From Flavobacteriales bacterium (GTDB taxonomy: Bacteria > Bacteroidota > Bacteroidia > Flavobacteriales > UBA7312), in NCBI GenBank assembly GCA_049890295.1, contig JBMHBP010000012.1, positions 9,983 through 73,982 on the forward strand: a stretch of DNA of 64,000 nt, given 5' to 3'. Shown here in pieces: positions 4,388 through 19,040 of the stretch. The notes beneath the pieces are model-generated. The model had not been told where the DNA came from. It ran no database searches and saw only the letters and a list, made by a program, of their open reading frames with translations. Within the stretch, counting starts at the first letter, position 1; each line of letters opens with the position of its first letter. Both the position numbers and the translations under genes were made by a program.

Positions 4388-5023
4388 TTAAAGATTAAAT
4401 TCTGGAAGTTCATTTACTCTTGCATAAGGTAAATTATCAATACCTTTTAAACTATAATAACGATTCAGCCCACCTATCCCAACAGATTGAAGTTTTTGCA
4501 AATCAATTTCATAGTTTTCATTTAGGCATGTGTCATCAATAGTTATATGCTCAATAGAGCCTATAAACAAGGAACATTGATTAATGGTAATTGGAACTAC
4601 TTCCTCTAATTTTAAACCGATTTTCAAGTGGCTTTCTTTGACAAATGGCGCATCAAATCCATCAATATATTCTTCCGTTAGTTGACATTTTTCAAACTCT
4701 GAATCCTGTGAATCAAATTTGGCAGAAGTATAATGGGCTTTAGATACAAACTGAGGGTGTACATGATTGAAAGTATAATACTTTGTTTCTAATATATTTT
4801 CATAAGTATCGCGTCTTACTTCGGTATGCGGACGAAGAAAAAAACCTAACAAAGCAGGATGACTACCTAAATGTACTACTGAACTAAAAATAGCAAGATT
4901 AGTATTTCCTTCGCCTGATTTTGTGCCAATTAAATTAGCTGGCTTAATACCAGTTATTGAATTAATCAAATTTAAACGTTTAATTCGAGGGGTTTTAAAA
5001 ATATCTTCTTTGGTTAAGTGCAT
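4388..5023 (-). CDS. Flavin reductase family protein (FMN-binding split-barrel)
   Basis: 211 aa. LNLINSITGIKPANLIGTKSGEGNTNLAIFSSVVHLGSHPALLGFFLRP matches the conserved Bacteroidota flavin-reductase-like block as I remember it. Confidence 0.6.
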   Translation of the reverse strand: MHLTKEDIFKTPRIKRLNLINSITGIKPANLIGTKSGEGNTNLAIFSSVVHLGSHPALLGFFLRPHTEVRRDTYENILETKYYTFNHVHPQFVSKAHYTSAKFDSQDSEFEKCQLTEEYIDGFDAPFVKESHLKIGLKLEEVVPITINQCSLFIGSIEHITIDDTCLNENYEIDLQKLQSVGIGGLNRYYSLKGIDNLPYARVNELPEFNL

Positions 5024-5024
5024 T

Positions 5025-5504
5025 TTAAAGGATTATTCTACTTTTTACTAAATCTTGAAAAGATAGTATATTGGTTTCCGAAAAAGTTTTAAAGGTCGTG
5101 ACATCAAAAAAGAAAATGGCATGATCACCGTGGTGCTCCATAACAGATTTTTTTTCTAACTCAAGAACCGCTGAAATATCTTTAAGTATGGTATGATCTT
5201 TCCAATTTTCTAACAAGTCGTAAGACTGTAAATACCGTTCTTTATCATAAATACGGCCGCTGACTTTACCTAATTTACGAATCACTTTAAGATTATTGGA
5301 ACTGAGTAATTGGAGAACTACTTTATCAGATTTTTCGAGATTTTTAAAGGTTTTAGAAGTATAATCTATAGCAATCATATACATCTTAGGTTTCATACTA
5401 ATTGGAGATACATATGTACAAATATTCATGTTTAGACTATTGTTATCATCATAAGTAATCAAACTATAAACTGGTGGACTAATTGTATTCCAAGGTCGTT
5501 TCAT
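5025..5504 (-). CDS. Flavin reductase-like domain protein (weak call)
   Basis: 159 aa. Size and the pattern LITYDDNNSLNMNICTYVSPISMKPKMYMIAID resemble the flavin reductase-like fold. 4-nt overlap with the upstream gene and 1-nt gap to the downstream gene. Confidence 0.45.
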   Translation of the reverse strand: MKRPWNTISPPVYSLITYDDNNSLNMNICTYVSPISMKPKMYMIAIDYTSKTFKNLEKSDKVVLQLLSSNNLKVIRKLGKVSGRIYDKERYLQSYDLLENWKDHTILKDISAVLELEKKSVMEHHGDHAIFFFDVTTFKTFSETNILSFQDLVKSRIIL

Positions 5505-5962
5505 TTTTTAAATTTTTTATCTAAGACTTTAAATCTGTAATCGAAAATTTCTTTAAGTTGTTTTTTGATCAAAAATTGATTAGCAATGTCACCCAAAATA
5601 CCAAATGGTGGGATATAGGTAACAATATCAGTCATTAAAACACCCTTGTCATTTTCCTCAAAAAAATGTTGATGATGCCACATTTTATAAGGACCCATAC
5701 GTTGTTCATCAATAAAAAAATGTTTATCCCTAACTTGTGTTATTTCAGTCACCCAATTCATTTTAATATTCAAAAGCGGGGACACTTTATAAGAAATGAT
5801 CATGCCAGGATACATCTTTTCCCTCAACTCTTCAGAGGTAATTTCAAACAACATATAATCTGGTGTTATTTCTTTTAGATTTTTTGGAGAAGAAACAAAG
5901 TCCCAAATTGTATCGATGTCAGTGTTTAATTGCTGTTTTACAGTTAATTGATAGTGCGACAT
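5501..5962 (-). CDS. SRPBCC (START/polyketide-cyclase-like) family protein
   Basis: 153 aa. N-terminal pattern ...DIDTIWDFVSSPKNLKEITP... and the overall size are typical of SRPBCC ligand-binding proteins. First gene after operator copy 1. Confidence 0.6.
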   Translation of the reverse strand: MSHYQLTVKQQLNTDIDTIWDFVSSPKNLKEITPDYMLFEITSEELREKMYPGMIISYKVSPLLNIKMNWVTEITQVRDKHFFIDEQRMGPYKMWHHQHFFEENDKGVLMTDIVTYIPPFGILGDIANQFLIKKQLKEIFDYRFKVLDKKFKK

Positions 5963-5990: not shown

Positions 5991-6022
5991 TTGTATAATT
6001 ATCTTTTTATACATCTATACAA
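5991..6022. promoter_or_regulatory. Palindromic operator candidate copy 1 (TTGTATA-N18-TATACAA)
   Basis: TTGTATA at 5991..5997 and TATACAA at 6016..6022 with an 18-nt spacer. Lies 29 nt upstream of the SRPBCC start (5962, minus strand). The right arm overlaps a minus-strand TATATTTG box (6027..6020). Same arms and spacing as copies at 7262 and 14149. Confidence 0.6.
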
Positions 6023-6157: not shown

Positions 6158-7039
6158 TTAATTGATAATGTCTATAAATTCATCAAGGTTTTCCATAACA
6201 ATTAGACTTTTTTCCTGTGTTAGAAAATTTATATCTAGTCCATTAGCTACTAAATAATGTTTGGCTGATGGAAAAGTTTTGTTTATATAATCCGTTGTAA
6301 AATCTAGATTACTTTTTGAAGTATTTGAAATGGAGAAAAACAAAACATTATCTACTCTTCTTTTTTCTGCTAGCTGTTGAAGTGATCCGTAAGGAATGTT
6401 ATTACCCAAATAGATGACTTCATAACCATGTTTAACAAGTAAAAATTTAGCAAACATTAATCCTATATCATGAAATTCATTTTCGGGTAAGAAAAGTAAC
6501 CAGCTTTCTTTACTGTTGATATTTAAACTAGCAGAGTCAGCAGCGGCGGACACCTTTTGCTTAACAAGTTCAGATAAGAAATGCTCTTGTGAAGGAGCAA
6601 TTCTATTAGTGAGCCAAAAAATACCGACCTTATTGAAAGCTATTAATAAAACGCTTTTATAGAATTCAATAATTCCCAATTCACGAACACCACTATCATA
6701 AGTCAAATGAAACAATTTAGAATCAAACTCTAGAGCTGATTCAATGAGTTTAGAAATATAGTAAGCCTCTTTGGATTTATTATCAGAACTGTTTTTTATA
6801 CTATCTACTTTCTGTCGTATTTCATCATCAGAAAGTTTTGAGACCACAGATATTTTGAGTCCGTTTTCAAGTAAATAATTACAGTTAAGAGCACGCACTA
6901 ATAAGTCATCAGTATAATAACGGATTTTAGTGTCAGTACGCTCGGCTTTTAAAAACCCATAACGATTTTCCCATGTTCTTAGTACAAACTTGGTAATTCC
7001 CGTTATCTGGGAAAATTGATCTATACTATACTTTGTCAT
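6158..7039 (-). CDS. carH: MerR-family transcriptional regulator with B12-binding domain, CarH/LitR-type AdoB12 photoreceptor
   Basis: 293 aa. MerR HTH (YSIDQFSQITGITKFVLRTWENRYGF). Wx9EH (WLTNRIAPSQEH, nt 6581..6616). ExHxxG (EFHDIG, nt 6461..6478), then SIS about 42 aa later and NG about 28 aa after that, which is the cobalamin-binding Rossmann signature. Confidence 0.85.
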   Translation of the reverse strand: MTKYSIDQFSQITGITKFVLRTWENRYGFLKAERTDTKIRYYTDDLLVRALNCNYLLENGLKISVVSKLSDDEIRQKVDSIKNSSDNKSKEAYYISKLIESALEFDSKLFHLTYDSGVRELGIIEFYKSVLLIAFNKVGIFWLTNRIAPSQEHFLSELVKQKVSAAADSASLNINSKESWLLFLPENEFHDIGLMFAKFLLVKHGYEVIYLGNNIPYGSLQQLAEKRRVDNVLFFSISNTSKSNLDFTTDYINKTFPSAKHYLVANGLDINFLTQEKSLIVMENLDEFIDIIN

Positions 7040-7261: not shown

Positions 7262-7293
7262 TTGTATAATTATTATGTTATTTTTTTATACAA
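7262..7293. promoter_or_regulatory. Palindromic operator candidate copy 2 (TTGTATA-N18-TATACAA) in the carH / cupredoxin-FAS1 divergent region
   Basis: TTGTATA at 7262..7268 and TATACAA at 7287..7293 with an 18-nt spacer. Flanked by a minus-strand TATATTTG (7255..7248, toward carH) and a plus-strand TATATTTG (7321..7328, 22 nt before ATG 7350). Confidence 0.6.
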
Positions 7294-7349: not shown

Positions 7350-9098
7350 ATGAAAAAAGTTTATTTATTATTTTCATTGTTTTTCTTGACAATGACATTT
7401 TCTTTTGCTAGCAGCCATCAAATAAATGCTGGCGGATTTTACTACCAACCATCTTCGCTCACAGTCTCTATTGGTGATACTGTAGTTTGGGTAAACGATG
7501 GTGGAACTCATGATGTTAATGGTAATATCAATTCTCAAACGGGATCTAGCTTTAACAATCCTGAAAGTTTTAGTTCAGCCTCAACATCAGCACAAGGAGC
7601 AATCATTTATACTTACGTATTTACCATACCTGGCACATACAACTATGATTGCTCAGTTGGTAATCATGCAGCAATGGGCATGGTTGGAACAATTATAGTT
7701 GAGGATGAAACTACAGTTTTTGATTTAATTGCTAGCTCTGAAAACCACACAACATTAGAAACAGCATTATTAACTGCTGGTCTTGACGCTGCCCTAAACG
7801 GCGATGGACCATTCACTGTGTTTGCTCCTAGTGATGATGCCTTTGGCGAAATACCACAAGATGATTTAGATAATCTGTTAGCCAATGCTGCACAGCTAAA
7901 CGCTGTTTTATTACACCACGTTCATGCTGGCGAAATCTTAGCTCAAGATATTGTTACAATGAATGGTATGACAATTGAAACACTAAACCAAGATCAATTA
8001 TCTGTCACCATTGACGGCTCAACAGTAATGATTGATATGTCTACTGTTACTACACCTGACCTTATCGCCGATAACGGGGTAGTACATGTTGTTGATATGG
8101 TATTAATGCCAGAAACACTGACAACTGTATTCGATATCATAGCTGGTTCAGAAAACCACATGACTTTAGAAACGGCTATACTTGAAGCCGAGTTAGATGA
8201 TGCTTTAAACGGTATTGGACCTTTGACCGTATTTGCTCCCAGTGATGATGTGTTCAACAATCTTCCGGAAGGTACACTAACTACTTTATTAGCTAATACA
8301 AATCTTTTAACCACCATACTATTACATCATGTACATGCCGGAGAACTTCTTTCAGCTGACTTAGTTGGCATGGATGGTATGACTATTGAAACACTGAACG
8401 ATGATGAATTAACAATTACAATCGCTAATGATATTGTCAAAATTGACATGGCTACAGTAACAATTCCAGATCTTACGGCAATTAATGGTGTTGTTCATGT
8501 GATTGACATGGTACTGATGCCTGAAATTGATACCACCATAACTGTGATGGATATTGTGGATAATTCACCATCACATACAACACTAAAAACAGCTTTATAC
8601 GAAGCTGAATTAGATGATGACCTAAGAACAGAAGGTCCATTCACTGTGTTTGCACCAACTGACAGTGCATTCAATAGTTTACCTGCAGGTGCTTTAGACG
8701 ATTTATTAGATAATATCCCAGCACTTATAGAGGTATTACACCATCACGTTCATTCTGGAAACGCTATGGCTGATGACTTATCTAATGATATGATGATTCC
8801 TACCCTAAACAACGATAATTTAACTGTAACAATTGAGGGTAGTACAGTCATGATAGATATGGCAACTGTTGTATTAGCTGATTTAACAGCAGATAACGGC
8901 GTAGTACATGTTATTGATATGGTTCTTTTACCGGAATCAAATCCAACAGCAATAGATGAATTTATTTCAACCGACAAATTTTACTTATATACAATGAACA
9001 TTCTTGGCGAAAAAGTTAATAGAAATGCTAAAGACAAAATTCTTATTGACATATTTTCTGATGGTAGTTCAATCAAACGTTATAACTTGACTAAGTAA
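7350..9098 (+). CDS. Secreted cupredoxin (type-1 copper-like) domain + three fasciclin (FAS1) domains + short C-terminal T9SS-like tail
   Basis: The track ORF starts at TTG 7176. I place the start at ATG 7350 (MKKVYLLFSLFFLTMTFSFA signal peptide). Cupredoxin region has candidate Cu ligands H (GGTHDV), C (YDCSV), H (GNHAAM), M (GMVG). There are three ~137-aa FAS1 repeats (TVFAPSDDAF...NGVVHVIDMVL). The tail NILGEKV...ILIDIFSDGSSIKRY resembles a truncated Por sorting domain. Confidence 0.8.
   Translation: MKKVYLLFSLFFLTMTFSFASSHQINAGGFYYQPSSLTVSIGDTVVWVNDGGTHDVNGNINSQTGSSFNNPESFSSASTSAQGAIIYTYVFTIPGTYNYDCSVGNHAAMGMVGTIIVEDETTVFDLIASSENHTTLETALLTAGLDAALNGDGPFTVFAPSDDAFGEIPQDDLDNLLANAAQLNAVLLHHVHAGEILAQDIVTMNGMTIETLNQDQLSVTIDGSTVMIDMSTVTTPDLIADNGVVHVVDMVLMPETLTTVFDIIAGSENHMTLETAILEAELDDALNGIGPLTVFAPSDDVFNNLPEGTLTTLLANTNLLTTILLHHVHAGELLSADLVGMDGMTIETLNDDELTITIANDIVKIDMATVTIPDLTAINGVVHVIDMVLMPEIDTTITVMDIVDNSPSHTTLKTALYEAELDDDLRTEGPFTVFAPTDSAFNSLPAGALDDLLDNIPALIEVLHHHVHSGNAMADDLSNDMMIPTLNNDNLTVTIEGSTVMIDMATVVLADLTADNGVVHVIDMVLLPESNPTAIDEFISTDKFYLYTMNILGEKVNRNAKDKILIDIFSDGSSIKRYNLTK
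7713..8936 (+). repeat. Three tandem ~411-bp coding repeats (FAS1 domain units)
   Basis: Units at about 7713..8111, 8124..8522 and 8538..8936 share long blocks at both nucleotide and protein level (ENHTTLETA / ENHMTLETA / PSHTTLKTA; FTVFAPSDDAF; LLHHVHAG; DNGVVHVVDMVLMPE). Confidence 0.8.
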
Positions 9099-9123
9099 AA
9101 CCCTCAATCAATTATACAATCAT

Positions 9124-9150
9124 GGGGGAGTAATTACTCCCCCTTTTTTA
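9124..9150 (+). terminator. Rho-independent terminator after the cupredoxin-FAS1 gene
   Basis: GGGGGAGT-AATT-ACTCCCCC gives an 8-bp GC-rich stem (9124..9143) followed by TTTTTT (9144..9149). It ends 11 nt before the gpx ATG. Confidence 0.75.
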
Positions 9151-9159
9151 TATCCTATT

Positions 9160-9684
9160 ATGACTAAATACCTCCTTTTAATTATATCACTTTTAACTAT
9201 GAATACTACAATTTCTCAAACTTTTTACGACCTGTCTATCAAAGGTATTGACGGAGAAACTATCAATCTTTCTGATTACAAAGAACAAAATGTACTGATT
9301 GTAAATGTTGCCTCATTTTGTGGTTATACTTCCCAATACACTGAACTTCAAAAATTACACGACTCTTTCCCCAACTTAACCGTAATAGGCGTTCCATGTA
9401 ATCAATTTGGTTTTCAAGAGCCTGGCAATGCAAAGGAGATACAGAACTTTTGTCAAAGTAAGTATAGTATAGATTTTGTGCTCACTGAAAAAACAAAAGT
9501 TAAGGGAAAAGACAAGCATGAACTTTATAAATGGTTGACAGAAAAGAGTCTAAATGGTAAAGATGACTTTTCAGTGAGTTGGAATTTCAATAAATTCCTA
9601 GTCAATTCAGATGGCCAATTAGTAGATCATTTTGGTAGTGGAGTGTCTCCAATGGACAGTAAAATCACCAGTCAAATTAGGTAA
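9160..9684 (+). CDS. Glutathione peroxidase (Cys-type, BtuE-like), secreted/periplasmic
   Basis: 174 aa. Signal peptide, VASFCGYTSQY (peroxidatic Cys block), GVPCNQFGFQEPG, WNFNKFLV. These are canonical GPx family motifs. Confidence 0.9.
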   Translation: MTKYLLLIISLLTMNTTISQTFYDLSIKGIDGETINLSDYKEQNVLIVNVASFCGYTSQYTELQKLHDSFPNLTVIGVPCNQFGFQEPGNAKEIQNFCQSKYSIDFVLTEKTKVKGKDKHELYKWLTEKSLNGKDDFSVSWNFNKFLVNSDGQLVDHFGSGVSPMDSKITSQIR

Positions 9685-10241
9685 TGAAGAAGTTTCTGAT
9701 TGTATGTTTATCTATAATTTCGGTATTTACTATTTACGCTTTTAATGTGAGTTATGATACAAACTATACCGTAATTGAGACTATTGAATCTGTAGAAATT
9801 CGAGAATATCCAGAATCAATTTTTGCTAGCTATTATACAAATGGTTCAGGAAATAACTCTCAATTTAGAGTGCTTGCCAACTACATTTTTGGCGGAAACG
9901 ACCGTCAAGAACAAATTGGTATGACCTCTCCGGTGAATATGAAAATATCATCTGAGAATAATGAAATGTTATTCTTGATGCCTAATCGATACAATAAAAT
10001 CAATTTACCAAAACCTAATAACATCAATATCGACATAATTACCGTAGAAAAACGTAAAGTAGCTACTCTTCGGTTTTCAGGTTACTCCAATACTGATAAA
10101 GTTAATAAGAAAAAAGCTCAACTTATCGAGACTCTAAATAAACACAATATTAAACATACCAATGAGTATGAACTATTAATTTACGACTCACCATATAAGT
10201 TGCTGAACCGAAGAAATGAAGTATTAGTCGTACTACCATAA
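9684..10241 (+). CDS. SOUL heme-binding family protein
   Basis: 185 aa. YTVIETIESVEIREYPE, FRVLANYIFGGN, IGMTSPV, ATLRFSGY are SOUL/HBP family blocks. The start overlaps the gpx stop by 1 nt. Confidence 0.75.
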   Translation: MKKFLIVCLSIISVFTIYAFNVSYDTNYTVIETIESVEIREYPESIFASYYTNGSGNNSQFRVLANYIFGGNDRQEQIGMTSPVNMKISSENNEMLFLMPNRYNKINLPKPNNINIDIITVEKRKVATLRFSGYSNTDKVNKKKAQLIETLNKHNIKHTNEYELLIYDSPYKLLNRRNEVLVVLP

Positions 10242-11035
10242 TGCCAGAAGGTCCTGAGGTAAAAATAGCATCCAAATTTTATAATTCTTTTTTTAAAGAA
10301 GCAAAAAATATGTCCTTTGATATTATCAACGAATATTATGAGGTCAAATACAAAACTGTTTTTGAAAAAATCAAAAACCATCATCCTAAAGATTTTGTAC
10401 CATCGTTTACAGTGGGTAAAAATTTATTTATTCCCTTAAACAACAATTATTTATTCAACTTCCATCTTGGCATGACAGGTTGCTGGAGTCATGAAAAATC
10501 AAAACACTGCCACTTCAAAATTTCTAGTAGTAATGGTGAACTCTTTTTTAAAGACGTTAGAAAATTTGGTAAAATGAGAATACTCACTTTTGATGAATTT
10601 GCCATAAAACATTCTCCTCAGTTTGATTTACTACATGAAGATTACAATACAGAATTACATCTAACATACCTTACAGAAAAAATTACCCCCAAACGGAGTA
10701 TATGCTCTGTATTGATGGATCAAAACTGTTTTCCTGGAGTTGGTAACTACATAAAATCTGAGGCCCTATTTGCTGCAAAAATTCATCCCGAAAAAAAATG
10801 GGGACAATTATCTAAGAGAAAAAAAATAACTTTAATAGAGTTTACAAAAGAAATCATGCATCATAGTTTTCAAACTGGAGGTGCTGAACTTAAAGATTTT
10901 AAAAACCCTTTTGACCAGTCTCAATTTTCATTAAAAGTGTATGGTAAAAAAAATGACCCTGAAGGGAATGAAGTGATCAGTCAATTAACCTCTGACCAGC
11001 GTAAAAGTTGGTTCTGTCCATCCGTTCAAAAATGA
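10241..11035 (+). CDS. Fpg/Nei family DNA glycosylase/AP lyase with degenerate (zincless-type) C-terminal finger
   Basis: 264 aa. N-terminal MPEGPEV (catalytic Pro2/Glu3), H2TH-like PGVGNYIKSEALFAAKIHP. The C-terminus ...VYGKKNDPEGNEVISQLTSDQRKSWFCPSVQK retains only one Cys where Fpg has CxxC...CxxC. Confidence 0.85.
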   Translation: MPEGPEVKIASKFYNSFFKEAKNMSFDIINEYYEVKYKTVFEKIKNHHPKDFVPSFTVGKNLFIPLNNNYLFNFHLGMTGCWSHEKSKHCHFKISSSNGELFFKDVRKFGKMRILTFDEFAIKHSPQFDLLHEDYNTELHLTYLTEKITPKRSICSVLMDQNCFPGVGNYIKSEALFAAKIHPEKKWGQLSKRKKITLIEFTKEIMHHSFQTGGAELKDFKNPFDQSQFSLKVYGKKNDPEGNEVISQLTSDQRKSWFCPSVQK

Positions 11036-11391
11036 ATTACTGTGTCCATTTTATTTTTTACAATCAGGAGCTACTACTATTGAAGCGAAAAAAAACAAAT
11101 CCATTTTTTCCTAACATATGGACACCTGTCATTGGGAAAATAAAAAATAATGAACAACCTTATGATGCAATGATTAGAGAAACAAAGGAAGAAACTGATT
11201 TGATTTTAGCAAATCCCCAATTTATTAAAGAAGTCAAACACAAGGATGATACGTATTGGTTTTATCAAAGCACGACCGAAACAACTGATATCTACTTGAA
11301 TCATGAAAATGATAAATTCAGTTTCTTTAAATGTAATGAGCTACCAGAAAGTTTATGGTTACTTTTCAAAAATATAGTTGCAAAATCCTAA
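11032..11391 (+). CDS. NUDIX hydrolase
   Basis: Nudix box GKIKNNEQPYDAMIRETKEETDL (Gx5Ex7REUxEExGU with G to D at the last Gly). I prefer ATG 11032 (ATGA overlap with the nei stop) over the track start at 11008. Confidence 0.8.
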   Translation: MNYCVHFIFYNQELLLLKRKKTNPFFPNIWTPVIGKIKNNEQPYDAMIRETKEETDLILANPQFIKEVKHKDDTYWFYQSTTETTDIYLNHENDKFSFFKCNELPESLWLLFKNIVAKS

Positions 11392-13454
11392 GTCAGTCGC
11401 TTAATAATCAAAGGCAAATAGACTAGATCAAAAAACACAGCAATAATTGCACTTAAGATAGTGATTACTGAAAGTTGAGATACAGACTTGAACTCAGAAA
11501 ACATCAGTGGTAGTAAACAAAAAATAATAATAAAGGTAGTTTTTACAACAGCCGAGCCCGTTTTAGTTAGCACTAAATCCATTGCTTTTGATTGGCTAAC
11601 CCCTCGCTTGATATGATTTGAATAGGCGCTAATCACATGTATTGAGTCATCAATAATCAGTCCAAAAACTATAGTAAAAATAAAAGCGTTAGATAAACTA
11701 AAGTAAAATCCAAATGTGTGAAGAATTCCAATACAAACAAGTATTGGTGCTAGATTTGGAATAACAGCAATCACAAAGTAATTTTTATTAAAATTATTGA
11801 TTACGAAGAAAATGATGCCTATTGATAAAATGGCAATCAATAAACCAAAAATTAGCTGTTTGGTTAAATCATTGGCTAATAAATCAAATAAATACCCCGC
11901 TCCAGAATATTCAAACTTAACCTCAGGGAATACACTTTCTAAGTTGTTTAACTTACTAATTGTTTTTAGTGAACCTTCATCAGAAGATCGACAAATAAAA
12001 AAATAACTATCGGCTAGAGATTCACTTGAAAACCCCATGCTTTTAAGCAAGCTAGTATTTGATGATATATTAGAAAAATCTATTGTAAAACCCAAGTTTA
12101 TCAATTCATCTTCAATAGCTTTTAATTGCTCATAGTCTAATTCTTTTTGTTGACTAATATTGATTGATATTGGCTTTATTCCTCCAAAATGTTGATCAAT
12201 GAAGGCCGTTTGTTTGTACATGAACGACTTTTTATTTATTTCATCAGTTAAGTAGTTGTCAATTTTTACATTAAACACACCATAAACTCCTAAAGCAACT
12301 AAAAAAACCATGACAACATGAAAAGTCATTTTCTGCTGGCCCTCTTTTAAAAACATAATAAAACTAGATATAAACTGTTCTATAAACAAATAACTATTAC
12401 TTTGATTAAAGCCTTTCTCAACACTGATGGAATAAACTAATTTGGCAATAAATAAAGTAACGACTACCCCTAAAGAAGTAATTATACCGAACCGTAAAAT
12501 TGGCATAATATCGTTAGCTAAAAAGGTTAGAAAACTCATAGCAGTAGTAATTGACGTCAAGGCTACAGCCTTCCCCACCAGGTTCATTCTATTGTCAAAA
12601 AAGCCTCTTCGAGATTGCGTCAGTTTAGCTTGTTTATTGGTCAAATGCATAATATCAGAAAGACAAACAATAAAAAGAATAGCAGGAGTAACAATCATTA
12701 CCAACTCAATACCACCAAATACAATTTGTGAAATTCCTAGCGTAATTACTATACTAGCTATTACGCTCATAACAGTTAAACTTACTAAAGCTAAATTTCG
12801 AGTAATAAGCATCAGAAATAAAAAGCAAAGCGTACCGCTAATAAGAGTCAAAACAATAAACTCTTCTATAACTTTTTTTGAAAAATATAATTCACTTGGC
12901 AGTCGTCCACTAACAAATACTTCCTCTAAATTAGCGTTAATATTAGCCTTATAAAGCGATGCTATAAAGGATTTATTTTCTTCAAAAGTAGTTTCCGCTT
13001 CTTTCTCTACTAAAAAAAGTAATTTTTTTCTGTCATCAGAAATGAAATTACTAGGTGATTGTTGTAACGTTAGAAAAGAGCGGTCAAATGATTGTTGACT
13101 TTGTAAATCCAACACCCTATTGGTGATTGGAAAAAGACCTGTATTTATAATTCGCCTGTCATTAATTATACTAAATAGACGTTTTACTTGGCTTGTTTTT
13201 TTTAAAGTCGTATGAAAATTTTTGACATCATTCATATCTGTATAAGACAGACTTTCTTTGAACGATAAGCCTAAAAAAACAAGATTATTATCATCGACTA
13301 ATTTTACAGCTTCGTTGCTAAGCTCTAACTCATTGATTATTCGTTCAGAATCAAAAAATATTGTTGCAGTCGAAAGACGAAAAGCACAATATATGAAAGT
13401 CAAAACGGTTAAAACCGATAAGCTATATTTATAACGCCACAAAAACGAATACAT
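11388..13454 (-). CDS. MMPL/RND-superfamily (sterol-sensing-domain type) membrane transporter
   Basis: 688 aa. Two hydrophobic 5-6 helix bundles separated by soluble loops, the topology typical of MMPL/SSD exporters. Follows the SDR gene after a 5-nt gap. Confidence 0.65.
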   Translation of the reverse strand: MYSFLWRYKYSLSVLTVLTFIYCAFRLSTATIFFDSERIINELELSNEAVKLVDDNNLVFLGLSFKESLSYTDMNDVKNFHTTLKKTSQVKRLFSIINDRRIINTGLFPITNRVLDLQSQQSFDRSFLTLQQSPSNFISDDRKKLLFLVEKEAETTFEENKSFIASLYKANINANLEEVFVSGRLPSELYFSKKVIEEFIVLTLISGTLCFLFLMLITRNLALVSLTVMSVIASIVITLGISQIVFGGIELVMIVTPAILFIVCLSDIMHLTNKQAKLTQSRRGFFDNRMNLVGKAVALTSITTAMSFLTFLANDIMPILRFGIITSLGVVVTLFIAKLVYSISVEKGFNQSNSYLFIEQFISSFIMFLKEGQQKMTFHVVMVFLVALGVYGVFNVKIDNYLTDEINKKSFMYKQTAFIDQHFGGIKPISINISQQKELDYEQLKAIEDELINLGFTIDFSNISSNTSLLKSMGFSSESLADSYFFICRSSDEGSLKTISKLNNLESVFPEVKFEYSGAGYLFDLLANDLTKQLIFGLLIAILSIGIIFFVINNFNKNYFVIAVIPNLAPILVCIGILHTFGFYFSLSNAFIFTIVFGLIIDDSIHVISAYSNHIKRGVSQSKAMDLVLTKTGSAVVKTTFIIIFCLLPLMFSEFKSVSQLSVITILSAIIAVFFDLVYLPLIIKRLT

Positions 13455-13459
13455 ACTTT

Positions 13460-14125
13460 CTATTTTTTGATAGAAGATAATCCACCATCAAGCTGTAAAA
13501 CTTGACCGGTCATCCATGATGATTTGTCTGAAAGCAAAAATTCAATACCATGTGCAATATCCTGAGGTTGTCCAACTCTTTGTAATGGATGACGAGCATT
13601 CATTTGTTCTACCTGGGCTTCAGTTCTAAATAAACGACTTGATAATTTAGTTTGCACCACAGAAGGAGCTATACAATTCACCCTTACCTTAGGAGACCAC
13701 TCGGCAGCTAATGCACGTGCAAACCCCTCCAATGCTGACTTACACAATGAAATAGATGCATGATATGGCATACCGACAGATGCAGCAACAGAGCTAATAA
13801 ATACAACTGATGAATTTTGAGCCAATTGCTTGTGATAGTGTTTAAGAATTTTAATTAATCCTAATACATTTATTTCGTAATCAGTCTGAAAATCAGACAA
13901 TTTTAAACCAGAAAATGGTCTTAGGTTAATTGAACCAGGAAAATATACTAAACCATCTAAATCACCTGAAATATCTGGAAATGTGGATTCATCCTGAATG
14001 TTCACTTGGTGTTGTCCAGGACTTGAAGGATTGGAAGTAAACTGAATAAATTCTGTTTTAGTTCCGCTAATTTCTAAAAGGCTTTTAGCTATTTCACTAG
14101 AAGCACCAACGAGTAATATTTTCAT
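13460..14125 (-). CDS. Short-chain dehydrogenase/reductase (SDR), atypical catalytic-Tyr spacing
   Basis: 221 aa. MKILLVGASSEIAKSL Rossmann start, ISSVAA, CIAPSVVQT, and C-terminal WMTGQVLQLDGG typical of classical SDRs. The expected YxxxK region reads PYHASISLCKSAL. Confidence 0.8.
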   Translation of the reverse strand: MKILLVGASSEIAKSLLEISGTKTEFIQFTSNPSSPGQHQVNIQDESTFPDISGDLDGLVYFPGSINLRPFSGLKLSDFQTDYEINVLGLIKILKHYHKQLAQNSSVVFISSVAASVGMPYHASISLCKSALEGFARALAAEWSPKVRVNCIAPSVVQTKLSSRLFRTEAQVEQMNARHPLQRVGQPQDIAHGIEFLLSDKSSWMTGQVLQLDGGLSSIKK

Positions 14126-14148
14126 TTTTCTTGCAAAGCTAATACTTT

Positions 14149-14180
14149 TTGTATAATTTTGACAATGTAAATTTATACAA
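14149..14180. promoter_or_regulatory. Palindromic operator candidate copy 3 (TTGTATA-N18-TATACAA) in the SDR / PTPS-folE-crt divergent region
   Basis: TTGTATA at 14149..14155 and TATACAA at 14174..14180 with an 18-nt spacer, inside the 56-nt gap between ATG 14125 (minus) and ATG 14182 (plus). The left arm overlaps a plus-strand TAATTTTG box (14154..14161). A minus-strand TAGCTTTG box lies at 14141..14134. Confidence 0.6.
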
Positions 14181-14181
14181 A

Positions 14182-14598
14182 ATGAAAAAAGTTAAAGTAA
14201 TTCGTCGTGAACGTTTCAACGCTGCCCACCGATTATTCAACCCTAACTGGTCGGATAAAAAAAACGAAAGTGTTTTTGGCAAATGTTCAAACAAAAATTG
14301 GCACGGTCACAACTACGAGTTATTTGTCACTGTTGAAGGCACTATCGACCCAGAGACTGGCTACGTTATTGATCTCAAAATTTTGAGTGACATCATCAAA
14401 AATAATGTTGTAAACAAAATGGACCACCGAAACCTTAATCTAGAAGTTGACTTCATGAAAGGTGTGATTACTACAGCTGAAAATATAGCCGTTAAAATAT
14501 ACGAACAGATTGAAAAAGAAATCAAGGCTACTAACTGCAATCTCTACAGTGTGAAACTCTACGAGACTGAAAATAATTATGTGGAGTATTATGGATAA
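14182..14598 (+). CDS. 6-pyruvoyl-tetrahydropterin synthase / QueD family (COG0720) enzyme
   Basis: I place the start at ATG 14182 (MKKVKVIRRERFNAAHRL...); the track start at 14149 is a TTG inside the operator. Motifs FNAAHRL and C-x5-HGH (CSNKNWHGHNY), and the C-terminal ETENN block. Confidence 0.85.
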   Translation: MKKVKVIRRERFNAAHRLFNPNWSDKKNESVFGKCSNKNWHGHNYELFVTVEGTIDPETGYVIDLKILSDIIKNNVVNKMDHRNLNLEVDFMKGVITTAENIAVKIYEQIEKEIKATNCNLYSVKLYETENNYVEYYG

Positions 14599-15277
14599 AA
14601 AACAAAACGAAAATATCGCTCACATCATAGAACTAAATCCTGAATTAAAAAATATTGGTTTTGCCGATGGTATAAATATTGGAGGTGCACTCAATAGTGC
14701 GGAGAAGGAAGTAATGATTAAAAAGGCAGCTCATAAATTTGGAGAGTTTTTAGATGCATTAGGTTGCGACTGGAAAAACGACCCTAATTCTAAAGAAACA
14801 CCAACAAGAGTTGCCAAAGCGTATGTCAACGATTTGTGGGCCGGACGATATAATCCATTTCCTAAAATAACCACTTTCCCCAATGACGATTATGATGGCA
14901 TCATTTTTGAGGGAAATATTCCTGTAATATCTATGTGTTCTCACCACCATCAAACCATTATGGGCAAAGCACATATAGCCTATATTCCAAAAATCAACCA
15001 TAAGATAATAGGATTGAGTAAGCTCAACCGAATTGTCGAACATTACTCCAGGCGTGGTGCTATTCAAGAAAACTTGACAGTACGCATTCACGATGCCATC
15101 AATAAGATAGTTGAGAGTAACAAGGGAGTTGCTGTAATGATTGAAGCAACTCACAATTGTGTTCAATGTAGAGGTGTAGGCCATAAAGGAACAACAATGA
15201 AGACTTCTAAATTAACTGGAGAGTTCATAGAATCGAACAAAACAAGAAATGAATTTTATGAATTTATCAAGTCTTAA
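14579..15277 (+). CDS. folE: GTP cyclohydrolase I (FolE type 1)
   Basis: 232 aa. TPTRVAKAY, zinc ligands in SMCSHHHQ and ATHNCVQCRGV. Alternative start at ATG 14591. Overlaps the upstream gene end. Confidence 0.9.
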   Translation: MWSIMDKKQNENIAHIIELNPELKNIGFADGINIGGALNSAEKEVMIKKAAHKFGEFLDALGCDWKNDPNSKETPTRVAKAYVNDLWAGRYNPFPKITTFPNDDYDGIIFEGNIPVISMCSHHHQTIMGKAHIAYIPKINHKIIGLSKLNRIVEHYSRRGAIQENLTVRIHDAINKIVESNKGVAVMIEATHNCVQCRGVGHKGTTMKTSKLTGEFIESNKTRNEFYEFIKS

Positions 15278-15279
15278 AT

Positions 15280-16758
15280 ATGGGTAAGGTTTCAGTCATA
15301 GGAAGTGGATTTTCAGGCTTAAGTACGGCGGCATTCTTGGCAAAAGATGGGCATGAGGTTTCAATTTTTGAAAAAAACAATACCATAGGAGGTAGAGCTA
15401 GACAATTTAGTGCCAATGGATTTATTTTTGATATGGGTCCAAGTTGGTATTGGATGGCTGATGTTTTTGAAAAATTCTTTCATCAATTTGGAAAAAAACC
15501 CAGTGACTATTTTGATTTAGTACAATTAGATCCAGGCTTTCAGATCATTTTCGACCAAGATCATACAATGGAAATTTCGTCGAATTGGGATGACGTTTGC
15601 GAGTTATTTGAATACTTTGAAAAAGGCTCTGCAGATAAGCTAAATGCATTTATGAAAGAAGCCGAATACAAATACGACATCGGCATCAATCAATTAGTGT
15701 ACGAGCCAGGGCTGTCATTATCAGAAGTCTGCAAACCTGAAATTTTCCTCAACGTATTTAAACTTCAAGTTTTCACTTCTTACAGAAAGCATGTAGCTAA
15801 ATATTTTAAAAATCCTTATTTAAGATCACTTTTAGAGTTTCCTGTTTTATTTCTAGGAACAGCACCCAATCAAACCCCCGCTTTGTATAGTTTAATGACT
15901 TACTCCGGCATCAAAAAAGGAACCTTTTATCCAATGGGTGGTTTTGGGAAAGTTATTGATGGCTTTAAACAAGTATGTGTCGAACAAGGGGTTTCTATTT
16001 TCACAGACGAGGCCGTGCAGTCAGTGAACATAAAGGACAGAAAAATTCAGTCAATACAAACAAGCCAAAGAACGTTTGAAACTGATGTTCTGATAGGATC
16101 GGCCGATTACAGCCATGTAGATAATAAAATTCTACCCAAAGAATACAGTAATTACAAGGCATCCTATTGGGAGAATAGAACTTTCTCGCCATCTAGTTTG
16201 TTATTTTATGTAGGAGTCAATAAAAAAATAAATAAACTCATTCATCACAATTTATTTTTTGATGAAGATATTGAACAGCATACTAATGAGATATATAAAA
16301 ACCCACAGTGGCCAAAACAACCTCTTTTTTATGTTTGCTGCCCTTCAAAGACAGATCCAGAAGTAGCTCCAGAAGGAAAAGAAAACTTATTCTTTTTAAT
16401 GCCAATAGCTCCCGGCCTTCAAGATACCGAAGAGATTCGCGAAAAATATTTCAAAATAATGCTAAAGCGTCTAGAAAAATATACGGGACAAAGCATAGAG
16501 GACGCTATTGAGTACAAAAAGAGCTACTGCGTTAATGACTTCGTTTCTGATTATAATGCTTATAAAGGCAACGCCTATGGCTTAGCTAACACGCTTATGC
16601 AAACTGCTAATTTGAAGCCTAAAATCAATAATAAAAAAATATCAAACTTATTCTACACAGGACAACTTACTGTACCAGGACCCGGTGTCCCACCTTCAAT
16701 TATTTCAGGACAGGTGGTTGCCAAACATATTGTAGATTCTAAACTTCTTTCATTATGA
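15280..16758 (+). CDS. crtI: Phytoene desaturase
   Basis: 492 aa. FAD dinucleotide fold VIGSGFSGLSTAAFLAKDGHEVSIFEKNNTIGGRA and C-terminal FYTGQLTVPGPGVPPSIISG, typical of CrtI. Confidence 0.9.
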   Translation: MGKVSVIGSGFSGLSTAAFLAKDGHEVSIFEKNNTIGGRARQFSANGFIFDMGPSWYWMADVFEKFFHQFGKKPSDYFDLVQLDPGFQIIFDQDHTMEISSNWDDVCELFEYFEKGSADKLNAFMKEAEYKYDIGINQLVYEPGLSLSEVCKPEIFLNVFKLQVFTSYRKHVAKYFKNPYLRSLLEFPVLFLGTAPNQTPALYSLMTYSGIKKGTFYPMGGFGKVIDGFKQVCVEQGVSIFTDEAVQSVNIKDRKIQSIQTSQRTFETDVLIGSADYSHVDNKILPKEYSNYKASYWENRTFSPSSLLFYVGVNKKINKLIHHNLFFDEDIEQHTNEIYKNPQWPKQPLFYVCCPSKTDPEVAPEGKENLFFLMPIAPGLQDTEEIREKYFKIMLKRLEKYTGQSIEDAIEYKKSYCVNDFVSDYNAYKGNAYGLANTLMQTANLKPKINNKKISNLFYTGQLTVPGPGVPPSIISGQVVAKHIVDSKLLSL

Positions 16759-17594
16759 AACATATTTTCGATAACGTATCCGATAGATGCAGTAAACTAA
16801 CAACTATAGCCTACAGTACCAGTTTTAGTTTTGGTATTAAAGCATTAGATAAAAAACTACATGCACCAATATATGGTATTTATGGCTTTGTTCGATTTGC
16901 TGATGAAATAGTAGATACCTTTCATGAATACGACAAGCATCACCTATTTAATAAATTCAAAGAAGATACCATTGAGTCAATAGATAGAAAAATAAGCTTA
17001 AACCCTATCCTCAATAGTTTCCAAAAGGTAGTCCATGACTATAATATTGAATGGAATCTTATTAATACCTTTTTAGATAGCATGCAAATGGATCTTGATG
17101 AAGAACAGGCATACGATTCCGACAAGTATAACAAATATATATTAGGGTCTGCTGAAGTAGTCGGTTTAATGTGCCTAAAAGTGTTTGTAGACGGTGATGA
17201 AGATGCATATACAAAACTTAAGCCAAGCGCGATGAGTTTAGGCTCAGCATTCCAAAAAGTTAATTTTTTGAGAGATGCTAATAGCGACTTTAACAACTTA
17301 GGAAGAACCTACTTTCCAGATGTTAATATGCTAAACTTTAGCGAATCAGACAAAGCAAAAATTGAAGCCGATATACAATTTGACTTTCAAGAAGCTTTGG
17401 AAGGAATTAAACAATTACCATACAGTTCAAGAGGTGGTGTTTATCTAGCTTATATTTATTATTACAATTTATTTAGAAAAATTAAGTCCTTACCATCCTC
17501 TAAAATATTAGAAGAAAGAATTCGAATTCCAAATGCTGATAAGCTTGCGCTGATGGCCCAATCAATGATAAAAAATCAATTGAATTTGATATGA
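16755..17594 (+). CDS. crtB: Phytoene synthase
   Basis: 279 aa. YSTSFSFGIKAL, YGFVRFADEIVD (first Asp-rich motif region), SAEVVGLMC, FQKVNFLRD. 4-nt overlap with crtI. Confidence 0.9.
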   Translation: MKHIFDNVSDRCSKLTTIAYSTSFSFGIKALDKKLHAPIYGIYGFVRFADEIVDTFHEYDKHHLFNKFKEDTIESIDRKISLNPILNSFQKVVHDYNIEWNLINTFLDSMQMDLDEEQAYDSDKYNKYILGSAEVVGLMCLKVFVDGDEDAYTKLKPSAMSLGSAFQKVNFLRDANSDFNNLGRTYFPDVNMLNFSESDKAKIEADIQFDFQEALEGIKQLPYSSRGGVYLAYIYYYNLFRKIKSLPSSKILEERIRIPNADKLALMAQSMIKNQLNLI

Positions 17595-18052
17595 AAGTAT
17601 GTATTTCAATACTTCTCCTCTTTTTATCTAAGCTTGCCTTAACACAATCATCCAAAACAACTGAGCTTCGTGAACTCTTTGTCACCGCTCATACTGAAGA
17701 GGAAACGTGTATTAAGCTATTTAAATTAACTGAAAATACCGATTTGAAAGAAAATTCATTAGCATACGCATATCATGCAGTCGCTAATATGTTATTAGCA
17801 AATTACGCTTTAAATCCATTCAAAAAATGGCACTATTTTAAAGTTGGTAAAGAAATGCTTGAAAACGTAATTATTCAAAACCCAAAAAATATTGAAATTC
17901 GTTTTTTGAGGTACTGCATTCAAATGAATTCACCAGTATTTTTGGCCTATCAAAGTGATCTAGAAACAGATAAAAAAATTATATCCTCAAGCATTTATAA
18001 TCAGCCTAAACACTTACAATCATTTATTAACCCCATATTTAACAATCTATAA
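17591..18052 (+). CDS. Hypothetical signal-peptide protein embedded in the carotenoid operon
   Basis: 153 aa. Hydrophobic N-terminus (MKVCISILLLFLSKLALTQS). The composition looks helix-prone, though no structure prediction was run. ATGA overlap with the crtB stop (17591..17594) and 1-nt gap to idi. No family recognised. Confidence 0.6.
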   Translation: MKVCISILLLFLSKLALTQSSKTTELRELFVTAHTEEETCIKLFKLTENTDLKENSLAYAYHAVANMLLANYALNPFKKWHYFKVGKEMLENVIIQNPKNIEIRFLRYCIQMNSPVFLAYQSDLETDKKIISSSIYNQPKHLQSFINPIFNNL

Positions 18053-18053
18053 T

Positions 18054-18593
18054 ATGAATTCGCAAGTTATTTTAGTTGACAAGAAAGATAATCCTATTGG
18101 TATTATGGACAAGCTAGAAGCTCATGAAAAAGGGCTTCTACACAGAGCTTTATCTGTTTTTATTTTCAATTCTGAAGGCAAGATGCTTATACAGCGACGA
18201 GCTTTAACGAAATATCACACACCCGGCTTGTGGAGCAATACTGCATGTAGTCACCCAATGATTGGAGAAGAAACGATAGATGCAGCCCGAAGACGTTTAA
18301 AAGAAGAGATGGGTTTGACAACAAATTTGACTTTTTCATTTAGTTTTTTATATGAAGCAAGTTTTATAAATGGCCTCACTGAAAATGAATTAGATCATGT
18401 TTATTTAGGCTTCTCAGATGATAAACCTGAATTTGATAGAAGAGAAGTTTGTGACTATAAATACATGAGTACCGAAGAGCTTGAAAAAGACGTTAATGAC
18501 TTTCCAGAAAAATATACCCCATGGTTTAAAATATGCCTCAAGAAAGTATTAGAAAGCAAATACTATTTTCAAAAAAATGCATTAATTGCTTAA
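18054..18593 (+). CDS. idi: Isopentenyl-diphosphate delta-isomerase, type 1 (Nudix fold)
   Basis: 179 aa. LHRALSVFIFNSEGKMLIQRRA, WSNTACSHP (catalytic Cys), ENELDHVY. Confidence 0.9.
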   Translation: MNSQVILVDKKDNPIGIMDKLEAHEKGLLHRALSVFIFNSEGKMLIQRRALTKYHTPGLWSNTACSHPMIGEETIDAARRRLKEEMGLTTNLTFSFSFLYEASFINGLTENELDHVYLGFSDDKPEFDRREVCDYKYMSTEELEKDVNDFPEKYTPWFKICLKKVLESKYYFQKNALIA

Positions 18594-18602
18594 TTTTGTA
18601 CT

Positions 18603-19040
18603 ATGAATTGGTTGATGAGTTTGCTAATAATTTTTACAACTTTTTGGGTAATGGAGTTTGTTGCATGGGCTACTCATAAATACGTCATGCACGGCTTTTT
18701 ATGGAACTTACACAGAGATCATCACCAAGTAGATAAACACAAAAAGTTTGAAAAAAACGATGCATTTTTTCTGATTTTTGCCTTACCGGGGGCCGTTTTA
18801 ATGATGTCTGGATCATATTTTCTACCAATAGGTATTGGTATTACCCTTTACGGTTTTGCTTACTTTATAATTCACGAAGTATTTATTCATCAGCGTATCA
18901 AATTACTTAGAAATACGAACTTACGCTATTTTAAAGCCATCAGAAGAGCTCACAAAATTCACCACAAAAATCTAACTAAAGAAAACGGCAGTTGTTTTGG
19001 GATGTTGATTGTTCCTCTAAAGTACTTTAAAAGGTACTAA
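18603..19040 (+). CDS. crtZ: Beta-carotene 3-hydroxylase
   Basis: 145 aa. His boxes HKYVMH, HRDHH, HEVFIH, HKIHH in a small 4-TM protein, the classical CrtZ layout. Confidence 0.9.
   Translation: MNWLMSLLIIFTTFWVMEFVAWATHKYVMHGFLWNLHRDHHQVDKHKKFEKNDAFFLIFALPGAVLMMSGSYFLPIGIGITLYGFAYFIIHEVFIHQRIKLLRNTNLRYFKAIRRAHKIHHKNLTKENGSCFGMLIVPLKYFKRY

Follow-up and report, generated by a model that had tools for sequence, protein, structure and literature searches.

A 64-kb stretch of DNA from a metagenome-assembled genome of an uncultured marine Flavobacteriales bacterium (below, the window; GC content approximately 0.30-0.40) contains a carotenoid operon headed by two pterin genes, encoding a 6-pyruvoyl-tetrahydropterin synthase (PTPS) of the PTPS-II type (family COG0720) and GTP cyclohydrolase I (FolE), an arrangement retained across a marine clade that is abundant. 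The operon with the PTPS-FolE pair is probably controlled by a CarH-type operator, located in the short gap between the PTPS gene and a divergently transcribed gene of a short-chain dehydrogenase/reductase (SDR). With slightly better than even confidence, we consider the locus to be one arm of a light-released, CarH-type (adenosyl-B12) regulon that would yield a biopterin-type pterin alongside carotenoids. The evidence comprises gene identities, motifs, operon packing, a repeated and conserved palindrome, and comparative linkage.

All genes of the operon lie on the forward strand in the order PTPS, FolE, crtI, crtB, a 153-aa open reading frame (orf153), idi and crtZ, ending at position 19040. 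The PTPS gene (14182-14598, ATG at 14182, 138 aa; PF01242, 7e-36) is the first cistron, and its stop codon is overlapped by 8 nt by the ATG at 14591 of the second one, a divergent folE (14591-15277, or from an alternative start at 14579; PF01227 GTP_cyclohydroI, 5e-48, 163 bits). The start of crtI (15280-16758) is 2 nt past the folE stop, and its product matches NF058655 CrtID, a bifunctional phytoene desaturase/3,4-desaturase, with 713.6 bits, above the cutoff of 640. The crtI/crtB and crtB/orf153 overlaps are 4 nt each, crtB being a phytoene synthase gene (16755-17594; PF00494 SQS_PSY, 3.6e-34) and orf153 occupying 17591-18052. They are followed by idi, encoding type 1 isopentenyl diphosphate isomerase (18054-18593; NF002995, 164 bits, cutoff 127), and a gene for a CrtZ-like carotene hydroxylase (18603-19040; PF04116 FA_hydroxylase, 2.4e-12). 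The position of the COG0720 enzyme and GTP cyclohydrolase I at the head of the crt operon, proposed in a preliminary description of this DNA, is confirmed by the open reading frames and Pfam matches.

The same description placed the SDR gene divergently across a 56-nt gap, and this is indeed the case: the gene (13460-14125, reverse strand, 221 aa; Pfam adh_short_C2, 2e-39), encoding a protein of the classical fold lacking the catalytic Tyr, is separated from the PTPS gene by exactly 56 nt (14126-14181). On the same strand, 5 nt downstream of the SDR gene, there is a gene of an MMPL/RND (HAE3/HpnN-like) transporter (11388-13454), and these two genes are probably co-transcribed. Identical or syntenic copies of the gene block are present on independent NCBI, ENA/TARA and Logan contigs, so that it is not an assembly oddity; approximately 20 kb are syntenic in relatives, with protein identity of 76-88%, and also in an abundant lineage whose PTPS has entries in 95 blocks of the sequence collection.

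The published active-site signatures distinguish PTPS-II (CxxxxxHGH), QueD (CxxxHGH) and PTPS-III (ExxHGH) (PMC5041015; PMC5445326). The motif of the window PTPS is GKCSNKNWHGH, that is, Cys35-x5-His41-Gly-His43, the PTPS-II signature, in agreement with the earlier distinction between the Cx5HGH spacing of CSNKNWHGH and the Cx3HGH spacing of QueD. The search against solved structures with phmmer yields rat PTPS (1b66, 2e-34) and human PTPS (3e-34), compared to 8e-6 for PTPS-III from Plasmodium falciparum (1y13) and 4e-5 for QueD from E. coli (4ntm), and the identity is 42% to animal PTPS versus 31% to E. coli QueD; thus, when placed against QueD, PTPS-II and PTPS-III references, the protein is closest to PTPS-II. 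In the phmmer alignment to 1b66, His16, His41 and His43 correspond to rat His23, His48 and His50, and Cys35, Asp81, His82 and Glu128 correspond to rat Cys42, Asp88, His89 and Glu133, all being identical. In the rat enzyme these residues are the zinc-binding His triad, the Cys/Asp/His catalytic triad and the pterin-anchoring Glu, respectively. The QueD equivalog model TIGR03367 scores 66.8 on the window protein, below its cutoff of 89.25, and the CxxxHGH motif is absent. Judged by its sequence, the window COG0720 protein is therefore a PTPS-II-type enzyme, not QueD. A PTPS-III activity or a bypass of FolB was also considered and rejected, since the Glu of ExxHGH is replaced by Lys38.

Still, the protein could be the QueD of this organism, with FolE and QueD feeding queuosine (and folate) synthesis and the placement in the crt operon having no meaning for a pterin pigment; we regard this as improbable. 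The COG0720 family is promiscuous and difficult to annotate (PMC5041015; PMC5699537). NCBI labels of near-identical proteins vary, including 6-carboxytetrahydropterin synthase, and the near-universal PTPS-FolE pair in Bacteroidota suggests a housekeeping role. Moreover, QueD reportedly tolerates a shifted active-site Cys (2012 work of Phillips et al.). Against QueD stand the Cx5HGH motif, the TIGR03367 score and the differences in E-values and identity given above, as well as the absence of queuosine genes: none of queC, queE or queF occurs in the window, and a tblastn search of 2.09 Mb (164 PTPS- or SDR-centered loci and the window), with unverified query sequences for QueC of E. coli and QueE of B. 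subtilis, yielded no QueC-like and two QueE-like genes, the latter approximately 6 kb away.

A further point concerns tandem paralogues. Of the 80 PTPS-selected loci provided by a metagenome scan with a PTPS alignment, some 33-36 contain a pair of tandem Cx5HGH paralogues, located upstream of folE in many non-marine Bacteroidota (L086-L163; for instance, L087 9362-10414 and L094 9360-10414). The upstream, "W-type" paralogue has the motif CANENWHGH and C-terminal VEYFG, while the folE-proximal, "Y/F-type" one has CNNPN[YF]HGH and C-terminal VEYPA. The window PTPS, with CSNKNWHGH and C-terminal VEYYG, clusters with the W-type sequences in 82 of 100 neighbor-joining bootstraps, but its assignment to this type is only tentative, since it is about equidistant from the two clades (53% identity to the W-type versus 55% to the Y/F-type). 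One of the tandem paralogues could be the 6-carboxytetrahydropterin (CPH4) synthase of the lineage, which keeps the QueD explanation alive.

FolE of the window matches E. coli FolE with 1.4e-32; E. coli C110/H112/H113 and H179/C181 have their counterparts in its C-S-H-H and H-x-C segments, so that the T-fold FolE domain, the Cys/His/Cys zinc site and the catalytic His pair are in place. The protein misses every NCBIfam FolE cutoff (170.3 vs 202, 159.1 vs 181.6 and 157.1 vs 162). Its CSHH corresponds to CEHH in every one of 70 comparison sequences (69 PTPS-linked Bacteroidota FolEs and the E. coli one), and it is only 36% identical to the other 69 PTPS-linked Bacteroidota FolEs, whereas those share 54% identity among themselves. 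By these features, the FolE of the marine clade looks like a specialized or fast-evolving copy.

The 56-nt gap is nearly filled by a palindrome, TTGTATAATT-N14-TTATACA (14149-14179), a candidate CarH operator. Elsewhere in the 64 kb the palindrome occurs at two sites only, both in promoter-like gaps. One copy (7262-7292) is situated between the gene of a CarH/LitR-like regulator (6158-7039, reverse strand) and a forward-strand cupredoxin/fasciclin-GPx-SOUL-Fpg-Nudix string (7350-11391; GPx, glutathione peroxidase), and the other (5991-6021) is approximately 30 nt upstream of a reverse-strand string of SRPBCC and two flavin-reductase-like genes (4388-5962). Allowing for at most three mismatches, there are 7 strand matches to the palindrome compared to 1.69 expected, and none of 100 shuffled sequences reaches 7. 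Three sites are found at the matching gene positions in relatives (L005, L006, L008) and one in the crtI/SDR gap of L007; in all four loci, the half-sites are conserved and the spacers are variable. In distant loci, a TGTTTAA...TTAAACA variant is observed upstream of PTPS or carH. A promoter and terminator scan of the window yielded fewer matches than in shuffled sequences, the sigma-70 consensus used in it being unsuited to Bacteroidota.

The product of the regulator gene combines a MerR helix-turn-helix (HTH) domain (Pfam MerR_1, 6e-14) with a B12-binding-like C-terminus, and its translation contains WLTNRIAPSQEH (Wx9EH) and EFHDIG. CarH proteins, such as the one from Thermus (TtCarH), are characterized by the Wx9EH motif and a His lower-ligand motif; hence the MerR HTH, the B12-binding module, Wx9EH and the His motif of CarH/LitR regulators are all recognizable here. 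The recurrence of the palindrome beside the CarH-like regulator and its conservation in relatives make light-dependent co-regulation of PTPS-FolE with the carotenoid genes a reasonable inference. The suggestion that the pterin genes share the crt operon behind a photoreceptor-type operator is thus supported by the operon packing and by the palindrome shared with the neighborhood of the CarH-like regulator, the operator itself being predicted. The candidate CarH regulon would comprise SRPBCC and the two flavin-reductase-like genes; carH and the cupredoxin/fasciclin-GPx-SOUL-Fpg-Nudix string; SDR-MMPL; and PTPS-FolE-crt.

The following mechanism may be proposed, in which we infer the control by light, the nature of the pterin formed and whatever part the SDR plays. 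Without light, the palindrome at 14149-14179 would be occupied by the CarH-like repressor (6158-7039), so that both divergent promoters would be blocked, and in the light the CarH-type repressor would be inactivated and the palindrome released. The rightward promoter would then produce a single packed, partly overlapping message for PTPS-II, FolE, CrtI, CrtB, orf153, Idi and CrtZ, and the leftward one a message for the SDR and the MMPL/RND transporter. FolE would convert GTP to dihydroneopterin triphosphate (H2NTP), and the PTPS-II-type enzyme would convert the latter to 6-pyruvoyl-tetrahydropterin, whose light-induced formation is the most likely chemistry of the locus. The SDR may act on the pterin or alongside it, for instance in the reduction of the ring or the side chain, or in recycling. 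The predicted result is a light-induced, non-folate, biopterin-type pterin, formed together with carotenoids and with the products of the regulon's genes against oxidative damage (GPx, Fpg/Nei, Nudix).

The complete tetrahydrobiopterin (BH4) pathway suggested in the preliminary description is only partly supported, namely for its first two enzymes, FolE and PTPS-II, as the SDR lacks the usual catalytic Tyr. The relevant SDR segment is Y121-H-A-S-I125-S-L-C-K129, and the alignment to solved SDRs places Ile125 in the position of the catalytic Tyr and Lys129 in that of the catalytic Lys. The residues YHASISLCK had therefore been read correctly, but not their interpretation as a stretched YxxxK motif, since it is Ile125 and not Tyr121 that occupies the catalytic position. 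Tyr121 as the catalytic residue (Yx7K) was considered and rejected, as 62 of 76 family members have Phe there.

The replacement is characteristic of the family. In an alignment of 76 sequences from genome contigs, all 75 other members have Val or Ile in the Tyr position; the motif match gives the same for 73 of 75. The profile search against 1.84 billion representatives yielded 238 clusters at 50% identity with E<=1e-30, and among the 144 best representatives of normal length 142 have Ile, Val, Thr or Met in this position, with His three residues before it, and one has Tyr; the long representatives (515-557 aa) are plain double-SDR proteins. In the family signature, Tyr-x3-Lys is replaced by His-x2-[I/V]-x3-Lys and NNAG by Y[F/C]PG. 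In the 76-sequence alignment, His122, Ser111, Lys129 and Pro154-Ser155 are invariant and the position of Thr159 is occupied by Thr in 74 sequences, so the nicotinamide motif PSxxxT (P154-S155-x3-T159) is kept; the position of N86 is occupied by Asn in 63 sequences. The window SDR has S111/S112 and a degenerate Gly-rich loop, VGASSEIA, that does not match TGxxxGxG, and both glycines of GxxxGxG are retained in 40 of the 76 members; the SDR of L095 is among those with GxxxGxG. By its sequence, the SDR is a member of a large uncharacterized Bacteroidota family that essentially never has the Tyr.

The AlphaFold model of the SDR (pLDDT 75.7, below 50 in the loop 114-121) has an ordinary Rossmann SDR fold, and the Foldseek comparison with PDB retrieves generic SDRs only (1e-13). 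No specific likeness to a pterin reductase is seen among the PDB and NCBIfam matches, the best of which are glucose/ribitol dehydrogenase, FabG and tropinone reductase; in particular, the NCBIfam pteridine reductase model, with a cutoff of 288, reaches only 79.5, which generic SDR models equal or exceed. With Ile in the position of the catalytic Tyr, and since no pterin reductase stands out, the SDR is not of the sepiapterin-reductase kind as far as its defining chemistry is concerned.

The genome scan revealed at least 598 relatives of the SDR, mostly in Bacteroidota metagenome-assembled genomes, with a few labeled as other phyla, and neighbors were counted in the 80 best loci. The most frequent are DUF2805 (31 loci), flavin-reductase-like proteins (26), DASH-cryptochrome-type photolyase homologues (24), SRPBCC (17) and DPRP photolyase-related proteins (15), followed by CarH-like regulators (9), FolE (8) and PTPS (7). 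One neighboring cryptochrome representative is a true DASH cryptochrome (TIGR02765, 555 bits, cutoff 317), and the SDR family shares operons both with such cryptochromes and with class-I-like photolyases. Cultured bacteria having the SDR-photolyase operon include Mesonia oceanica ISS653 and Gillisia sp. JM1, where SRPBCC, SDR and photolyase genes follow one another and the photolyase start abuts the SDR stop, and Ekhidna sp. To15, with SDR-DUF2867-photolyase; in Pedobacter cryotolerans, the SDR gene has no photolyase gene beside it. Since the neighbors are mostly genes of photolyase/cryptochrome clusters, the family appears to be primarily a member of light/UV-response clusters. The role of a sepiapterin-reductase-like third step, earlier suggested for the SDR, is not supported in view of these commonest neighbors, the family-wide Ile/Val and the lack of similarity to pterin reductases.

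At the same time, the SDR is next to PTPS-FolE in 6 of 53 PTPS loci with sufficient room. Same-strand PTPS-FolE-SDR operons with FolE-SDR gaps of 5-16 nt are observed in L095, L104, L114 and L159, while in Chitinophagaceae and Flavipsychrobacter loci the SDR is divergent from PTPS-FolE. In L045, a crtZ-orf-crtB-crtI-carH-x-FolE-PTPS string is divergent from SRPBCC-DUF2805-SDR-FlavRed-TspO-DUF2071-DPRP-CryDASH (FlavRed, flavin-reductase-like; CryDASH, DASH cryptochrome), and L054 has carH...FolE-SDR-FlavRed-cryptochrome, lacking PTPS. Because several unrelated lineages have the SDR directly in PTPS-FolE-SDR operons, a pterin-related role of the SDR is plausible, and the recurrence of these operons and of the FolE-SDR-flavin-reductase-cryptochrome one suggests that it acts on the pterin or alongside it. 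The same operons provide comparative support for the proposed tie of the pterin to light and flavoprotein photoreceptors.

A more specific version, in which FolE, PTPS-II and the Tyr-less, His-containing SDR, as a new class of SDR, constitute a light-induced biopterin-type branch of Bacteroidota with the SDR as the pterin reductase, and the product either traps radicals as a photoprotectant acting with carotenoids or serves the photolyases and DASH cryptochromes co-operonic with the SDR as their cofactor or non-folate antenna, seems to us unlikely. Somewhat less doubtful, although still well short of even chances, is that the SDR is unrelated to pterins and takes part, with the MMPL/RND transporter, in the modification or export of a carotenoid or lipid, or has a general light-stress role with flavin-reductase-like, SRPBCC and DUF2805 proteins. 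The SDR and MMPL genes, 5 nt apart, are kept together in the marine clade; in L007 the SDR is divergent from crtI with no pterin genes there; and the neighbor counts are much higher for DUF2805, flavin-reductase-like proteins, DASH cryptochromes, SRPBCC and DPRP than for FolE and PTPS. However, the tight same-strand FolE-SDR junctions occur in several unrelated lineages, and only 6 of 80 loci, from the marine clade and a few relatives, have the MMPL partner (the adjacency is conserved in L005-L009, L016 and L165-L167).

The order in L054, lacking PTPS, and the co-operonic class-I-like photolyases and true DASH cryptochromes would also fit a role in folate synthesis, where FolE boosts folate and hence the methenyltetrahydrofolate (MTHF) antenna of these proteins, PTPS and the SDR being accessory or unrelated. 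Moreover, folE is reportedly light-induced in the LitR regulon of Burkholderia multivorans (2018 work of Sumi et al.). This explanation is very doubtful, as a PTPS with only the Cys makes no folate precursor (the PTPS-III ExxHGH position is Lys here) and would rather divert H2NTP from folate, and the window contains no photolyase gene.

Several observations weigh against a light-released regulon with a biopterin-type product. The Pfam B12-domain matches of the regulator are below the gathering scores (PF02310, 22.1 vs 32.1; PF02607, 22.1 vs 23), and its best NCBIfam family, CarH (NF052513), is matched with 79 bits only, against a cutoff of 400. The palindrome as the operator of this protein is a candidate by position and conservation only. 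The 64-kb window contains no pterin-using enzyme, photolyase or glycosyltransferase, and NAD(P)H binding by the window SDR is uncertain because the GxxxGxG glycines are lost. In the PTPS-selected loci, PTPS is followed by FolE in 64 of 80, most of the others being truncated, so this is a near-fixed pair in Bacteroidota, and its surroundings are mostly housekeeping genes (MqnA/B-like, FabD, PabC-like). Being nearly universal, the pair could have come to lie beside crt by operon shuffling, and in the close relative L007 the divergent arrangement of crtI and SDR-MMPL is kept without PTPS-FolE.

The last points would be accounted for by hitch-hiking, that is, an ancient PTPS-FolE pair that ended up ahead of crtI in a genome undergoing streamlining, has a constitutive promoter of its own as well, and is not functionally tied to light, carotenoids or the SDR. 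In a published network, the gene neighborhood of PTPS-II is highly variable, with the FolE link having coverage of at most 0.13 (PMC5445326), and most of the 80 PTPS-selected loci have the pair in non-light contexts. Yet PTPS has no intergenic space in front of it other than the 56-nt gap nearly filled by the palindrome; the pair again heads a crt/carH operon in the unrelated L045 and lies inside photolyase-type clusters in L090, L104 and L159; and the divergence of the marine FolE (36% identity, CSHH) is as expected for a specialized copy. We thus give hitch-hiking a low probability and retain the light-released regulon as the explanation that we favor.

Some other features of the locus deserve mention. 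The product of orf153 has no Pfam or NCBIfam matches and a signal-peptide-like N-terminus; the gene is conserved within crt operons, with homologues at the same position in L005-L008 and L045, and a homologue is also found beside a DASH-type cryptochrome in L159 (13335). No lycopene cyclase is recognized in the crt operon (15280-19040), where crtI matches CrtID. A gene of an approximately 227-aa membrane protein that adjoins crtZ in L007 and L045 is absent from the window. The MMPL/HAE3 (HpnN-like) transporter may be an exporter delivering carotenoids, or a lipid of another kind, to the outer membrane. A small Nudix gene (11032-11391) overlaps the end of the Fpg/Nei gene; the best NCBIfam matches of its product are weak (dihydroneopterin-triphosphate diphosphatase, 25.5 bits; MutT, 24.9 bits), and it could concern pterin or 8-oxo-dGTP metabolism.

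If the proposed scheme is true, non-phototrophic marine Flavobacteriales use a B12 photoreceptor to induce the synthesis of a pterin along with that of carotenoids, and a pterin joins the bacterial light-stress response. It would also provide the first functional handle on a very large SDR family of photolyase/cryptochrome clusters across Bacteroidota that breaks the Ser-Tyr-Lys rule, and clarify the role of PTPS-II in many bacteria where the annotation as QueD or PTPS is inconsistent.

As for known systems, the BH4 pathways of animals, Chlorobium tepidum and Synechococcus PCC 7942 resemble the window in FolE and a Cx5HGH PTPS with all zinc-binding and catalytic residues. Chlorobi and Bacteroidota are both members of the FCB superphylum, and pterin glycosides are produced by Chlorobi as well as by cyanobacteria. 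The presence of PTPS-II in Synechococcus has been reported (PMC5041015). Unlike these pathways, the window lacks a recognizable sepiapterin reductase (the SDR having no Tyr) and a glycosyltransferase, and its pterin genes form part of a carotenoid operon preceded by a CarH-type site. QueD (PTPS-I) shares with the window PTPS the T-fold COG0720 family, the H2NTP substrate and frequent clustering with FolE, but differs in Cx3HGH versus Cx5HGH, in the identity of 31%, and in queC/queE not being near the window PTPS. The SDR pteridine reductases (PTR1, FolM, sepiapterin reductase, dihydropteridine reductase) have the same classical fold and a deviating Gly-rich loop (TGx3RxG in PTR1 and FolM), but keep Tyr-x3-Lys, as opposed to His-x2-[I/V]-x3-Lys in the window family.

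Finally, CarH/LitR adenosyl-B12 photoreceptors drive light-induced carotenogenesis (PMC6739363), and the regulons of Myxococcus, Thermus and Bacillus megaterium are similar to the window in having a MerR-HTH and B12-domain regulator near crt genes and a palindrome in the crt promoter. The differences are that the window regulator is far below the CarH equivalog cutoff, and that neither the TTGTATAATT-N14-TTATACA operator nor the regulon content (pterin genes, the Tyr-less SDR, MMPL, GPx, Fpg, SRPBCC, flavin-reductase-like) is described in the literature searched. A link of PTPS/FolE to crt operons or light in Bacteroidota was not found in that literature, covered in part, which is absence of evidence only; for DUF2805, it yielded one unrelated metagenome-correlation paper. 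CarH-controlled carotenogenesis is known already, and so are BH4-type pathways of Chlorobi and cyanobacteria; the literature searched reports neither the two combined nor a Tyr-less SDR family with ties to photolyase and PTPS-FolE genes.

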